Below are positions 13,715 through 45,706 of a DNA stretch of 64,000 nucleotides, piece by piece. The position numbers and the translations under genes are program-made. The stretch lies in sequence record PP328843.1. One strand, written 5' to 3'. Position 1 is the stretch's first letter, and every line of letters begins with the position of its first letter. The stretch comes from Escherichia phage 215Ecol030PP. The notes beneath the pieces were generated by a model. The model was not told the DNA's origin, ran no database searches, and worked only from the letters and a program-made list of their open reading frames with translations.

Positions 13715-13919
13715 TCATGCTCGTTTATATGAAACAACAAAATTTGGATAGTCCATAGATATGCAACGTTCTTTTATAGTGCTAGGATGAAAATTTAGCG
13801 CTTTAGCTGCTTCTATATAAGACGTATACTTAATACCGTCAACAACCACATATTCAGGAACTTTATGAATAGTAGTCTTTATCTTTTATTTTAGTACAAC
13901 GTCTTTTTATCCATTTCAT
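13715..13919 (-). pseudogene. remnant of intron-encoded homing endonuclease (short N-terminal ORF plus out-of-frame C-terminal DNA-binding motif)
   Basis: ATG at 13917..13919 preceded by GAGGTGAAACA gives MKWIKRRCTKIKDKDYYS-stop; in another frame ...VVDGIKYTSYIEAAKALNFHPSTIKERCISMDYPNFVVSYKRA-stop resembles C-terminal helix-turn-helix tails of phage homing endonucleases. Confidence 0.55.
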
Positions 13920-13948
13920 TGTTTCACCTCGTATTCATAAGATAATCT

Positions 13949-13956
13949 TATTTATA
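13949..13956 (-). promoter_or_regulatory. late promoter (TATAAATA) inside the nrdD intron
   Basis: Minus-strand TATAAATA about 30 nt upstream of the intron ORF start. Confidence 0.55.
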
Positions 13957-14169
13957 CAAGATGACTGCTGCATGTCGCCATGCAGATTAGACTATATCTT
14001 CATCTTTCGATGCCGGCCGTTTCGAATAGCATTAGCTTCTATTCTACACCGCTACATTCATCACGGTTAGTCGTTAGGCATTTAGTTCAAAAGAACATTT
14101 AGCACGGGATTGTCTACTAGAGAGGTTCCCCGTTTAGACCGGTTTTACATGAGCCTGAATTAAATTAAC

Positions 14170-14705
14170 TCATACGCCTGGAATGCATCGTATACATCTT
14201 TTTCTGTTTTAGATTGAGCATAATTCAACGCATCAGCGATTTGCCATTTTTCTGCATCCTCAATATGTTTTGCATAGGTGCGTTTAACATAAGGAGAAAG
14301 TACTTTATCTACATTTGCAAAAGTCGTTCCGCCATATTGATGGGAAGCAACCTGCGCAGTAATTTGTGCCATAATTGCAGTAGCAACGCCAATTGATTTA
14401 GGAGTTTCAATCTGTGCATTACCTAGCTTAAATCCGTTCTCAAGCATTCCTTTTAAATCTACTAAACAGCAATTAGTAAATGGAAGAGCAGGGGAATAAT
14501 CAATATCATGGAAATGGATAATTCCGCTTTCATGCGCTTTCATAATAAAAGACGGGACCATATTTTTGGCAATGTGTTTAGACACAATACCAGCCATAAG
14601 GTCCCGTTGAGTTGGAAAAACACGAGAATCTTTATTAGCATTCTCGTTTAAAAGGTCTTTATTAGTTTTATGAATCAATCCTTCAATTTCTTTTTCAATT
14701 GTCAT
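14170..14705 (-). CDS. nrdD: anaerobic ribonucleotide reductase NrdD, exon 1 (3' boundary approximate)
   Basis: MTIEKEIEGLIHKTNKDLL...KDVYDAFQAY then in-frame stop inside the intron; continues in exon 2. Confidence 0.8.
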
Positions 14706-15175
14706 TTTAAACTCTTTCTAAGCTGCTTCTTAAATGAAGCTATTAACTGTGTTTTGGTGTCAGATTCATTATATTCAAATCCTCTTTGAAGCATCTCGGC
14801 CATCATTTCCTCTTTTCCTAAACGAGAAAATTCCTTTGATTTATCTCCAACAAAGTTAGGGTGAATATTATTTTGGGTGTAATCGGATTTTAAATAAGTA
14901 AGTAAATTTTCTAACCATTCAAGATAATCAACACCTTGTCCCTTTAAGCCAGAACGATTAAATTTATGCTTCATTTGACCTTCTGCAGCATTGCAGAGAT
15001 TACAAAGCAATCCACGTATCTTTCCTGCTTTTGGTCCATTTAATTCATGGTCATGATCAAGATGATTAGCTTGAACATCAGGATTTAGTTCTCGTTGGCA
15101 AATTAAGCATTTACCGTTTTGTGCATTATAAAATTTCTGTTTTTCTTCTTTGTATAATTTGCCAGTCAATAACAT
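14702..15175 (-). CDS. 49: endonuclease VII (Holliday junction resolvase) gp49
   Basis: 157-aa ORF with Zn/HNH-like motif CLICQ...HLDHDHELNGPKAGKIRGLLCNLCN; length equals T4 endo VII. Confidence 0.9.
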   Translation of the reverse strand: MLLTGKLYKEEKQKFYNAQNGKCLICQRELNPDVQANHLDHDHELNGPKAGKIRGLLCNLCNAAEGQMKHKFNRSGLKGQGVDYLEWLENLLTYLKSDYTQNNIHPNFVGDKSKEFSRLGKEEMMAEMLQRGFEYNESDTKTQLIASFKKQLRKSLK

Positions 15176-15181
15176 AATAAA

Positions 15182-15206
15182 ACCCTTACCTTAAATAGAT
15201 AAGGGT
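15182..15206 (-). promoter_or_regulatory. hairpin sequestering the gene 49 Shine-Dalgarno
   Basis: Minus-strand ACCCUUA-UCUAUUUAAGG-UAAGGGU followed by UUUAUU-AUG; the AAGGG Shine-Dalgarno lies in the 3' arm. Confidence 0.6.
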
Positions 15207-15217
15207 ATTTATTATTT

Positions 15218-15394
15218 TTAAGTATTGTAAAACATTCGATGCAATCGTTTATACTGTCGAATCATCTTTTTAGTAGGACGAGAATAGGTTCCTACGCAAG
15301 TGGTCATATGAGGGTCCGTAGAATGTCCTTTAATAAAAAGTTTCCAAACCTTACCGCCATTTAACTTTTCAGTATAAACCAATTCGGTTTTCAT
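15218..15394 (-). CDS. small ORF (58 aa) lying between a pair of direct repeats
   Basis: MKTELVYTEKLNGGKVWKLF...IRQYKRLHRMFYNT; shares its last 14 codons with the ORF at 15431..15934. Confidence 0.4.
   Translation of the reverse strand: MKTELVYTEKLNGGKVWKLFIKGHSTDPHMTTCVGTYSRPTKKMIRQYKRLHRMFYNT
15220..15266. repeat. direct repeat copy A (about 47 bp)
   Basis: aagtattgtaaaacattcgatgcaatcgtttatactgtcgaatc, near-identical to copy B at 15433..15479. Confidence 0.7.
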
Positions 15395-15430
15395 TAAAAT
15401 GCCTTGTCAGAAAAAGAATTTTGAGTTTTT

Positions 15431-15934
15431 TCAAGTATTGTAAAACATTTGATGCAATCGCTTATATTGCCGAATCTTTTGGTCAGAAAAAGAAATTTGA
15501 TTTTCAAGCCATTCAATGTATTCTGCGGCAGCTTGCATCAGGTTACCTTCATAGCCATCGTTATTTTCTTGTGCAGCTAATTTAGCTAATGCGTATGAAA
15601 TACGTTCACCTTGAAAATCGGCTTTAGGCTTCTGAACAACTTGATTAGTTTGCTCTACAACTTCTTCAATTTCGCCATTTTCTACTGATTCAGTATTCCA
15701 CAAACACCAATACGTAATTGGTTTATCGTAGATGTTAATAATCTTTCCATCAGAAAGTTCAATTTCAATAATTCCAGTATCAGGTTCTATATCATCTTCA
15801 CATTCTTTTGCAAGTTCACGAACTTTAAAGACAGTACCTGCACTAAGTTCCGGCCAGTAATTACATAGCCCTGTATCAGCACGATTAATTCTAAACCACT
15901 TATCTACTGTAATCATGTCCCATCTCCACATCAA
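15431..15934 (-). CDS. hypothetical protein (167 aa; possibly the T4 pin-position gene)
   Basis: ORF between nrdC and 49; acidic central region; C-terminus duplicated in downstream small ORF. Confidence 0.5.
   Translation of the reverse strand: MMWRWDMITVDKWFRINRADTGLCNYWPELSAGTVFKVRELAKECEDDIEPDTGIIEIELSDGKIINIYDKPITYWCLWNTESVENGEIEEVVEQTNQVVQKPKADFQGERISYALAKLAAQENNDGYEGNLMQAAAEYIEWLENQISFSDQKIRQYKRLHQMFYNT
15433..15479. repeat. direct repeat copy B (about 47 bp)
   Basis: aagtattgtaaaacatttgatgcaatcgcttatattgccgaatc. Confidence 0.7.
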
Positions 15935-16038
15935 TTAAGTCATTTATCGTTGGTTCATTATATACTGTTTCTTCATCAGTGTAAACCGGTTCTTCCGGCT
16001 CTGGCTCTACAGTTTCCCATCTAGCCGCCCACCAAGGT

Positions 16039-44429: not shown

Positions 44430-45254
44430 TTAGATATTTGACCAGACTTTGTTTGCAGAGAAACGTTTTCCTTTGGAGTAGAAGCTTTGGAGTGGCATCA
44501 ACACAACGTTCGCCCAGTCTTTCGGGGCGATTTCAACAAGGCTACCCATAATATTACCAGGTATATATGCCTTAATCATTTGGTCTGCACCCCTAAATCC
44601 TTTCACTTGACTCCAATCAATTTTTAATTTCGTTTTATTAGTAATAGTAGGTGTATTTGCATATTGCTTTAAAAGCTCTTCTAGAAACTGTTGACGAGCT
44701 TTAGGTGGAATATAGTGCAAGTTTAATCCGTACATTAAATTATGCTTACCTAAACCAAGGTAAATTATCAAAGGAAATTTATCCCAGTAAGGAAGAGTTT
44801 CCTTGTGTTTAGCGTCATAAACAAAAGCATATATTCGTCCCGGCTGCGGGCGAACAACTTTATGTCCTTTTACTTGCTTAATAGTTTCAGCAAACCACTT
44901 TCTGGTTTTATTATTAATTGCTGCGCCTTCATTACGAATTTTATCACGCAATGTTTGCCTGAATGAATTTATCATAAGCAGTTGTCTTTCTTGCTTATTG
45001 AGTTTATTCATTGGTTTTGATTCAAGTTTTTGAATCTTTTCAGCTGTTTTAATTCCTGAAGCATATTTTGACATTGCTGAAGTAAACGTAGAGTATTTAA
45101 TTCCTCTTTCTTCAGCAAATTGCTTTCCTGTCATTCCTTTTGCTTTGGCCTTTTTATATTCAAGACCTATCTGAATCCATTTCTTTTCGTTTAATGATTG
45201 CTTAACCTTTGGAACTTGGGGAGTGCTTTCATTAATTATTTGAAAAATAGCCAT
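44430..45254 (-). CDS. 2: DNA end-protector protein gp2
   Basis: 274-aa basic ORF; length equals T4 gp2. Confidence 0.8.
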
Positions 45255-45706
45255 TATGCCCCCTTAAAGCCAAGAGCTCGTAATCCATCTTCTGTTAAAA
45301 TTCTAAATTTTATTCCACGCTTTTCAGCTAAAGCTTGCGCTGCTTTCCATTTGTCAGTATTAACGGAATATGTATAAATTTCATTCATAAATCTTTTCTT
45401 CGCTGCGGTTGTTAGATGTGCTGGTTTAACTGGTGGTTGTGTTTCTTTTTTAGGTTTTATTTCAATAAAAAATTCTTGTCCAGAAGAATCTTTCATCCAA
45501 ATATCCATGAAGTATCTACGTTTTTTCCCTTCTGCATTACAAAAATAAGGAATTACTGCTGTTTCACTACCCCATGCAATAATTTCTGGATTTTTATCTA
45601 ACCATTCAAAAAAGAATTTTTCCCAATTTGATCTATACGTAATTTTTTTAGGGTCACCTCTATACTTTGATATATTTTTAGGAACCCATTTTCCAGAATA
45701 TGCCAT
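45254..45706 (-). CDS. 4: head completion protein gp4
   Basis: 150-aa ORF; length equals T4 gp4. Confidence 0.8.

Follow-up and report, generated by a model that had tools for sequence, protein, structure and literature searches.

In Escherichia phage 215Ecol030PP, a short segment of DNA is present in two copies upstream of gene 49; the copies bracket a small open reading frame, and a hairpin lies directly in front of the gene 49 start codon. This layout raises the question of how the repeat came about, whether the small reading frame was inserted at this site or is lost from it, and whether the hairpin controls gene 49 in the manner of phage T4. We studied these questions in a stretch of DNA of 64,000 nucleotides (sequence record PP328843.1; referred to in the following as the window) and in the corresponding regions of related phages. 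The account of the locus that we consider very probable combines the duplication of a gene end, followed by repeat-mediated loss of the small reading frame, with a gene 49 switch of the T4 type.

Layout of the pin-49 interval

The region stems from a T4-like coliphage (Tequatrovirus). Over 1.25 kb at the site, it is 97.8-99.4% identical to the best 40 of 709 matching records, with phage D5505 as the nearest relative over this distance; 438 of the 709 records are at least 95% identical, and 507 records have an identity of at least 90% in the 1.25-kb region. All genes of the locus are carried by the minus strand, and their order in the direction of transcription is pin, a 36-nt spacer, a small reading frame of 58 codons (ORF58), a 42-nt leader, gene 49, and nrdD. 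The pin gene (positions 15431-15916, with the ATG at 15916) codes for PinA, an inhibitor of the host Lon protease. A first-pass annotation of this DNA had listed it as a 167-aa ORF that shares its end with ORF58; the shared end is indeed present, but the gene is pin and encodes 161 aa from its ATG, the same length as that of the T4 pin gene annotated in NC_000866. The spacer (15395-15430) separates pin from ORF58 (15218-15394), and gene 49 (14702-15175) encodes the recombination endonuclease VII of 157 aa, as judged from its matches to PF02945 (75.9 bits) and PF09124 (115.1 bits) and from the alignment of its start with that of T4 gene 49.

The direct repeat

The repeat search aligned positions 15201-15263 with positions 15414-15476 as a direct repeat of 63 nt with 83% identity and a spacing of 213. 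In the best ungapped 47-nt window, 42 of the 47 positions match at this offset, whereas 100 dinucleotide-preserving shuffles of the 1.8-kb region yielded a mean of 28.4 matches and a maximum of 32. These data uphold the earlier description of a segment of roughly 47 bp that is present twice about 210 bp apart. A dispersed repeat was considered as well and ruled out, since a 28-nt core of the repeat has exactly two copies in the 64-kb window (0 expected).

The coding part of the repeat comprises the last codons of two genes: copy Y2 (15218-15262) corresponds to codons 45-58 of ORF58 plus its TAA stop codon, and copy Y1 (15431-15475) to codons 148-161 of pin plus a TGA. The two copies differ at five of 45 nt (Y1/Y2: CGG/CGA, CAA/CAG, AAG/AAA, CAA/CGA, and TGA/TAA); three of these differences are synonymous, one exchanges Q for R, and the fifth affects the stop codon. 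As the first-pass annotation had stated, and as is seen in the translations, both proteins terminate in the same 14 residues, IRQYKRLH(Q/R)MFYNT. A second repeat family (X1/X2) connects positions 15397-15422 with positions 15473-15498 at a distance of 76 nt, and this pair and the Y1/Y2 pair (213 nt) are nested. The coding strand consequently reads, in order: the core of pin, X1 (..NQISFSD), Y1 with its TGA, a run of A residues, X2, Z (codons 1-44 of ORF58), Y2 with its TAA, a late-promoter-like box and the hairpin, and gene 49. In the alignment with the pin-49 interval of T4, the repeat holds: T4 is colinear with the window from end to end except for 213 bp by which the window is longer, and this is the repeat period.

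Conservation of ORF58 next to gene 49

ORF58 is a member of the Pfam family DUF7279 (PF23945; 62.7 bits at a cut-off of 24.5, with residues 7-56 aligned to positions 1-53 of the 53-position model) and of PHROG 3272 (phrog_3272; E = 3.4e-34). A search of IMG/VR gave six ORF58 loci, too few for a census, and we used the GenBank phage collection instead; there, tblastn found full-length matches to ORF58 in 363 phage records. In comparison with six homologues, pN/pS of ORF58 is 0.19-0.41, and the gene is therefore under purifying selection. Some records, e.g., those of S2_01 and ESh34, leave ORF58 unannotated.

At every inspected locus that possesses gene 49, the DUF7279 gene is positioned directly upstream of it. 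This order is found in HY01 and ZCEC14 (Tequatrovirus), G53 and AV114 (Mosigvirus), JS10 (Dhakavirus), and VR5 and VR7 (Gaprivervirus). Comparison of these genomes thus indicates that ORF58 is a conserved resident gene that adjoins gene 49 in at least four T4-like genera, and not an insertion. ORF58 normally starts in a TAATG overlap with the stop codon of pin; in the window, a Shine-Dalgarno-like AAGG motif for ORF58 sits in the 36-nt spacer. A search of a large protein database gave only 10 clusters for the ORF58 family, which fits a confinement of this family to T-even-like phages, and we found no mention of DUF7279 in the literature.

One of five AlphaFold2 (AF2) models of ORF58 reached a pLDDT of 81.6, and the other four reached about 53. 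The model consists of three beta-strands and a C-terminal helix, the latter formed by residues 42-56, which make up the repeated tail. Because AF2 was confident in one of the five runs only, we regard this beta3-alpha fold as tentative. Searches against PDB sequences gave no match for ORF58, and a Foldseek comparison of the model with the PDB returned nothing better than E = 0.27; in a fold search of BFVD, the sole significant match was an uncharacterised member of the same family from Salmonella phage S16.

Could ORF58 nevertheless be a mobile cassette that was inserted between pin and gene 49, with the 47-bp repeats as its target-site duplication? The extra DNA relative to T4 is bounded by the repeats and amounts to exactly one period, and the presence or absence of ORF58 is polymorphic among close relatives, both as one would expect of such an element. 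The downstream repeat copy, however, is an integral and conserved part of ORF58 that lies inside the DUF7279 model in several genera, and ORF58 adjoins gene 49 in these genera even in phages whose Pin has no tail. The unit contains no transposase, homing endonuclease or terminal inverted repeats, the repeat is found nowhere else in the window, and the spacer derives from pin (see below) and not from an element. We therefore judge an insertion of this kind to be very unlikely and treat ORF58 in the following as an old resident of the locus.

Origin of the C-terminal tail of Pin

The window Pin matches PF10465 with 164.5 bits (cut-off 27) over residues 4-141, and its C-terminal 15 residues fall outside of the family; likewise, phrog_2167 covers aa 1-146. 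Residues 1-146 are thus a full-length match to the family of T4 PinA (PF10465, MEROPS I24). The remaining residues, 147-161, match instead the ORF58 family phrog_3272 (E = 0.0098). The tail motif, IRQ(Y/F)KRxHRxFY, is present in all DUF7279 homologues examined, in all genera, and lies within the DUF7279 model. Pin proteins of the outgroups, wherever present, are without a tail of the IRQYKRLH type. The C-terminus of Pin is ..SFSDRAF in the Tequatrovirus phages HY01, teqsoen, and Kha5h (types A and D, see below), ..RFSD(K/E)AF in VR5 (Gaprivervirus) and JS10 (Dhakavirus), and ..YLERRLS in G53 and APCEc01 (Mosigvirus). Since all DUF7279 proteins carry the tail and the Pin profiles stop before it, the tail originally belongs to ORF58 and is a secondary acquisition of Pin.

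The opposite polarity, in which the tail belonged to Pin from the beginning and ORF58 took it from pin, might be suggested by its presence in the reference protein, T4 Pin, and in 300 or more records. Pin is tailless, however, in Mosigvirus, Gaprivervirus, and Dhakavirus and in types A and D of Tequatrovirus, every DUF7279 homologue has the tail, and the Pin profiles exclude it. This makes an origin of the tail in Pin extremely improbable. The comparisons argue instead that Pin of the window and of T4 carries a captured copy of the 3' end of its neighbour; Y1 would thus be a captured DUF7279 tail and Y2 its native counterpart.

In T4, the Pin sequence ends with ..SFSDR-MIQQYKRLHQMFYNT, and the stop codon is followed directly by the hairpin and gene 49, without ORF58. 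Judged from these alignments, T4 PinA is a chimera whose last 15 residues derive from an adjoining gene that T4 has since lost. Pin proteins of the T4 and window type consequently differ from the rest of the PinA family in that their last 15 residues are foreign and DUF7279-derived, whereas types A and D encode a Pin of 148 aa.

The spacer between pin and ORF58 provides a further trace of this event. Its sequence (X2; ACTCAAAATTCTTTTTCTGACAAGGCATTTTAATG) reads ..TQNSFSDKAF followed by a stop codon and terminates in a TAATG that overlaps the start of ORF58. Apart from a single base, X2 is the 3' end of pin as found in ZCEC14 (type A), whose ORF58 allele is nearly identical to that of the window, and it resembles the pin ends of HY01 and VR5 as well. 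Given this match to a type-A pin end, the 36-nt spacer is therefore best read as a relic of an ancestral pin-ORF58 overlap.

Four structural alleles in T4-like coliphages

To describe the variation at this locus, we took a census of the GenBank phage collection with junction-specific megablast queries; the numbers given here are coverage counts, with the genomes not inspected one by one. Four arrangements were found. Type A has a pin gene of 148 codons that overlaps ORF58, followed by gene 49 (HY01, ZCEC14), and is represented by 72 records, a number that agrees with the 178 Tequatrovirus-level matches to ORF58 minus 109. Type B is the arrangement of the window, shared with RB32, RB33, D5505, and the PYps Yersinia phages (109 records). 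Type C possesses the tailed pin without ORF58 (T4, T2, T6, RB14, PST), and type D possesses the 148-codon pin with neither the tail nor ORF58 (teqsoen, Kha5h, HY03, IME339; 69 records). The deletion junction of type D, TTTTAAT/ACTTGA, is located at a TTTTA(C)AAT microhomology.

Type C accounts for about 230-270 records. Counting by coverage also takes in type-A records, whose matches are joined into one place, and this was corrected with junction-centred 50-mers; one estimate starts from 299 records and subtracts these joined type-A matches, and the other starts from the 316 records with the common junction, subtracts 109, and adds about 65 records with T4's own junction. These 316 records, of types B and C, share with the window an identical pin-tail junction. 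Taken together, the four types sum to about 480-520 records, consistent with the 507 records that are at least 90% identical in the 1.25-kb region.

The census also bears on the question of whether the 47 nt owe their retention in two copies to a function of their own (e.g., promoter, RNA element or protein-binding site) rather than to an accident of recombination. Both copies are well conserved in B-type phages, and they contain the hexamer TACAAT that resembles a -10 element; a promoter scan, however, found no sigma-70-like site in either copy. A search of Rfam at the locus likewise gave nothing, the only match being the group I intron of nrdD. Moreover, most of the differences between the copies leave the encoded residue unchanged, as coding constraint predicts, and many isolates exist of each of the types A, C, and D, in which the segment is single or absent. 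We consider a dedicated function of the duplicated segment to be highly improbable and regard the repeat as the outcome of recombination.

Recombination at the repeat and order of events

The five nucleotide differences between Y1 and Y2 serve as markers for the origin of the tails in type-C phages, which have a single copy. T6 and RB14 carry all of the Y1 markers. In fPS-65, the first three markers are those of Y1 and the last two those of Y2, and the tail of 4E10 exhibits another mixture. PST has the Y2 state at all five markers, including the TAA, behind an unchanged X1-Y1 fusion junction. The B-type Y2 copy is recognised by its TAA stop codon and the AAAATAATAAATA behind it; type A has TGA at this place. 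Such chimeric tails are the products expected of crossovers at varied points within the 47-bp repeat of a B-type phage. Since the crossover points differ among the type-C tails, the 213-bp deletion must have occurred at the repeat on more than one occasion, and the lack of ORF58 in T4 is explained by such a deletion. The first-pass annotation had interpreted the repeat as a trace of insertion or duplication by recombination; recombination at this site is borne out by the chimeric tails, but the proposed direction of an insertion is not, since ORF58 is an old resident, and the direction documented by the alleles is, in our reading, that of ORF58 loss.

We propose the following sequence of events. 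An ancestor shared by many T4-like coliphages would have acquired an in-frame fusion of the final 14-15 ORF58 codons to pin, and this fusion would have displaced the native pin end, ..SFSD(R/K)AF. The B arrangement consists of the fused pin gene, 36 nt left over from the former end of pin, and an intact ORF58; the tail is found twice, 213 bp apart, because the fused pin and the intact ORF58 each carry a copy. Homologous recombination between the two tail copies would then delete ORF58 and generate the T4-type arrangement, a step that has taken place in nature repeatedly.

The order of events behind the window arrangement is inferred, and two routes lead to it between which we make no choice. 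In the first, an in-frame deletion would convert type A into type C, and an illegitimate join between C and A, from the end of Y to a point just before X, would give rise to type B; both sites of this join contain CTTGAAA, and the junction is CTTGAAAAAACTC. In the second, a tandem duplication of X-Z-Y in a type-A phage and the subsequent loss of the first Z would yield type B, from which type C would be formed by homologous deletion. By our reconstruction, each of the two routes would need two illegitimate events. The fusion junction of T4 and T2, CGAATGATTCAG (GAC CGA ATG ATT CAG), differs at three of 12 nt from the common junction, CAAAAGATTCGG (GAC CAA AAG ATT CGG), and there may therefore have been either one fusion that was changed later or two separate fusions.

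Deletions between short direct repeats of T4 are known from classical studies of rII. The deletions described here resemble them in that exactly one repeat period is lost and in that the crossover points are spread within the repeat, and the microhomology at the type-D junction is a further likeness; they differ from them in that they constitute a natural polymorphism among sequenced isolates and in that one of the products is an in-frame gene chimera. Arbiol et al. reportedly described in 2010 a modular shuffling of T4-type genomes mediated by PeSLs. PeSLs are cassettes of a promoter and a stem-loop that are repeated at many loci. As in PeSL shuffling, short repeats that flank small non-essential ORFs drive the gain and loss of genes in plastic regions; unlike PeSLs, the repeat of the window is coding sequence and exists in two copies only.

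The gene 49 leader: hairpin and late-promoter-like box

Barth, Powell, Trupin, and Mosig reportedly found in 1988 that the early RNA of T4 gene 49 is translationally silent and that the late RNA is active. The leader of gene 49 in the window is that of T4 save for one extra T. Its core hairpin (15182-15206, minus strand) comprises 10 pairs (ACCCUUAUCU/AGGUAAGGGU), one of them a G-U pair, closed by a 5-nt loop, and has a predicted energy of -12.9 kcal/mol; the Shine-Dalgarno sequence AAGGG resides in the 3' arm. An A/U-rich extension adds eight more pairs between positions 15207-15215 and 15174-15181, includes the A and the U of the AUG, and lowers the energy to -18.1 kcal/mol. The 7-bp hairpin that the first-pass annotation had noted is thus real and holds the AAGGG in its 3' arm, but it is larger than stated, with 10 core pairs and 18 pairs in its extended form. 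Relative to shuffled sequences, the 111-nt context of the hairpin has a z of -3.8. In folding calculations with a 181-nt read-through RNA, the probability that the AAGGG is unpaired is 0.00.

Directly abutting the stem, we read from the sequence a late-promoter-like box, AATAAATA (15206-15213, minus strand), whose final A also belongs to the stem as its first base. The consensus of T4 late promoters is TATAAATA, and the box fits it at seven of eight positions. We modelled RNAs that start 5-8 nt past the box: the 5' arm is lost from them, the leader retains -3.8 to -5.2 kcal/mol, and the GGG of the Shine-Dalgarno sequence is 0.8-0.9 unpaired, the start site in these calculations being a modelled one.

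We compared the leaders of 44 IMG/VR loci whose gp49 proteins have identities of 49-99%; these loci represent 28 distinct leaders. In all 28, an nnTAAATA box directly precedes the stem, the stem has 7-12 bp and contains the Shine-Dalgarno sequence in its 3' arm, and the AUG (a GUG in one leader) follows within a few bases. The sequences of the stems vary and include CCCUUAUCU/AGGUAAGGG, GGUUCAUCU/AGGUGAACC, CUCUUAUCU/AGGUAAGAG, and GAGUCAU/AUGACUC, among others. In the alignment of the leaders, 90% of the cells are paired, compared to 36-48% when the partners are slid against each other. Five of the 10 pairs exhibit changes on both sides, with 54 double-change cells vs 16.6 in shuffled alignments, and none of 500 shuffles reached the observed covariation score. 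This alignment indicates that compensatory changes have preserved the structure across distant T4-like phages, and it lends strong comparative support to the proposed gene 49 switch.

Hairpins at this position might alternatively act mainly as intrinsic terminators of the pin and ORF58 transcripts, with the occlusion of the Shine-Dalgarno sequence being incidental. Such a function could be read from the TTTTATTAT that follows the stem, which was flagged by our pattern scan, and GenBank records including those of D5505, Kha5h, G53, and G2540-3 carry the annotation of a terminator predicted by ARNold. The U run, however, is short and interrupted (a stem with four G-C pairs and the tail UUUUAUUAU), and a U tract is lacking in about 15 of the 28 distinct leaders, whose stem leads straight into the (U)AUG. 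Every leader retains the stem, the TAAATA box, and the Shine-Dalgarno sequence in the 3' arm. A terminator would also cost gene 49 all transcription from upstream, and the nested products annotated for T4 gene 49 imply that read-through RNA is present at this gene. Because about half of the 28 leaders are without a U tract, termination cannot be the conserved function of the structure; as a main role, we consider it unlikely, although a partial terminator activity may exist in Tequatrovirus.

The reading that we prefer is that of a translational switch. On read-through RNA from upstream promoters, the hairpin would hold the Shine-Dalgarno sequence, and the AUG in part, in base pairs, and full-length endonuclease VII would remain untranslated. 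Late RNA would start inside the 5' arm, from the box that abuts the stem; with its start at this place, the late RNA would not form the hairpin, and we propose that gene 49 is therefore translated from it. The T4 annotation lists two nested gene 49 products of 157 and 105 aa, and this fits what Barth et al. (1988) reportedly found. The claim of the earlier annotation that the hairpin matches the mechanism of T4 gene 49 agrees with these comparisons: in addition to the near-identity of the leaders, the window and T4 have in common the paired Shine-Dalgarno sequence in the 3' arm, the box abutting the stem, and the place in front of endonuclease VII. The two loci differ in the gene upstream of the leader, which is pin in T4 and ORF58 in the window, and in nothing of substance otherwise.

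According to a review, the sequestration of ribosome-binding sites has been demonstrated for a number of late genes of T4, with Barth et al. (1988) cited for gene 49 (PMC2988022). Release by a late promoter is described there for I-TevI, and hairpins on the transcripts of late genes located in early regions, namely e, soc, I-TevI/II/III, segB, and mobE, render the long early and middle RNAs silent, with late RNAs starting inside the structure (PMC2988022). The logic of these hairpins is that of the window hairpin; their sequences are unrelated, and the likeness is one of mechanism and not of homology.

Implications for T-even phages

The gene 49 hairpin is an already known switch for late expression, and the rearrangement at the repeat is ordinary in kind: it is repeat-mediated and affects a plastic region of T-even genomes. 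In a limited literature search, we found no paper on the captured gene end, the chimeric T4 Pin or the four-allele polymorphism; these features, including the mapped crossovers, appear to be undescribed so far. One could speculate that the captured 14-residue basic helix is a portable interaction module and that DUF7279 and PinA share a host target, either Lon or a partner of it. If this were true, the helix fused to Pin would partly replace the lost ORF58, which would account for its in-frame retention in more than 300 phages, including T4; we regard this idea as improbable.

The value of these findings lies mainly in annotation and in evolutionary history, and they leave the current understanding unchanged. 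The comparative leaders add support from covariation to the gene 49 switch of 1988. Work on the structure and function of PinA, and the domain limits of its family, should allow for the chimeric end of the T4 protein. With its four alleles and mapped crossovers, the pin-49 junction lends itself to measurements of repeat-mediated deletion in T-even phages on a set of naturally occurring variants.

A putative promoter and a leader variant upstream of gene 49

A pattern scan of the window revealed a near-consensus sigma-70 promoter-like site (TTTACA-17-TATAAT; 15957-15985, minus strand) about 40 nt upstream of pin, the gene for the Lon protease inhibitor PinA; its assignment reflects a consensus match only, at 11 of 12 positions. 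Judged by its sequence, this candidate promoter could supply the read-through RNA that would fold into the hairpin preceding gene 49, the endonuclease VII gene. In the leader of gene 49 from phage teqsoen, which possesses a pin gene without the tail and no ORF58, the Shine-Dalgarno sequence and the 3' arm of the stem read GGTAAGGA instead of GGTAAGGG, a replacement that weakens the ribosome-binding site and, within the stem, one C-G pair.

Further downstream, the nrdD gene of the window is split by a group I intron (region 13715-14203, minus strand; Rfam match to RF00028 at 13968-14203, minus strand, 70.9 bits). T4 positions 44878-45624, nearly the entire reading frame for the homing endonuclease I-TevII, are absent from the window, and their place is taken by about 190 unrelated bases whose sole ORF encodes 44 amino acids (13715-13849, minus strand).

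Variation in pin and at the junction with gene 49

The pin codons that immediately precede the tail shared with the DUF7279 gene read GAC CGA ATG ATT CAG (D-R-M-I-Q) in T4 and T2, while the common allele, present in 316 other records, reads GAC CAA AAG ATT CGG (D-Q-K-I-R). These alleles differ at three positions within 12 nt; the rest of the genomes is about 98% identical. In phages JS10 (Dhakavirus) and VR7 (Gaprivervirus), the Pin-like reading frame comprises only 57 amino acids and ends in ..RFSDEAF* or ..RFSDEVF*. In both phages another ORF of 90-100 amino acids separates this short frame from the downstream DUF7279 gene; the pin region has thus itself been rearranged outside Tequatrovirus.

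The Dhakavirus-like phage IME341 carries an additional 30-codon ORF, coding for the hydrophobic peptide MDALITVFWVGVVLFGLLLVLSCTAKLLGY. It lies within the roughly 90 nt that separate the DUF7279 gene from the late TAAATA box and its adjoining hairpin. Its presence again points to this junction as a hot spot where small genes are gained and lost.
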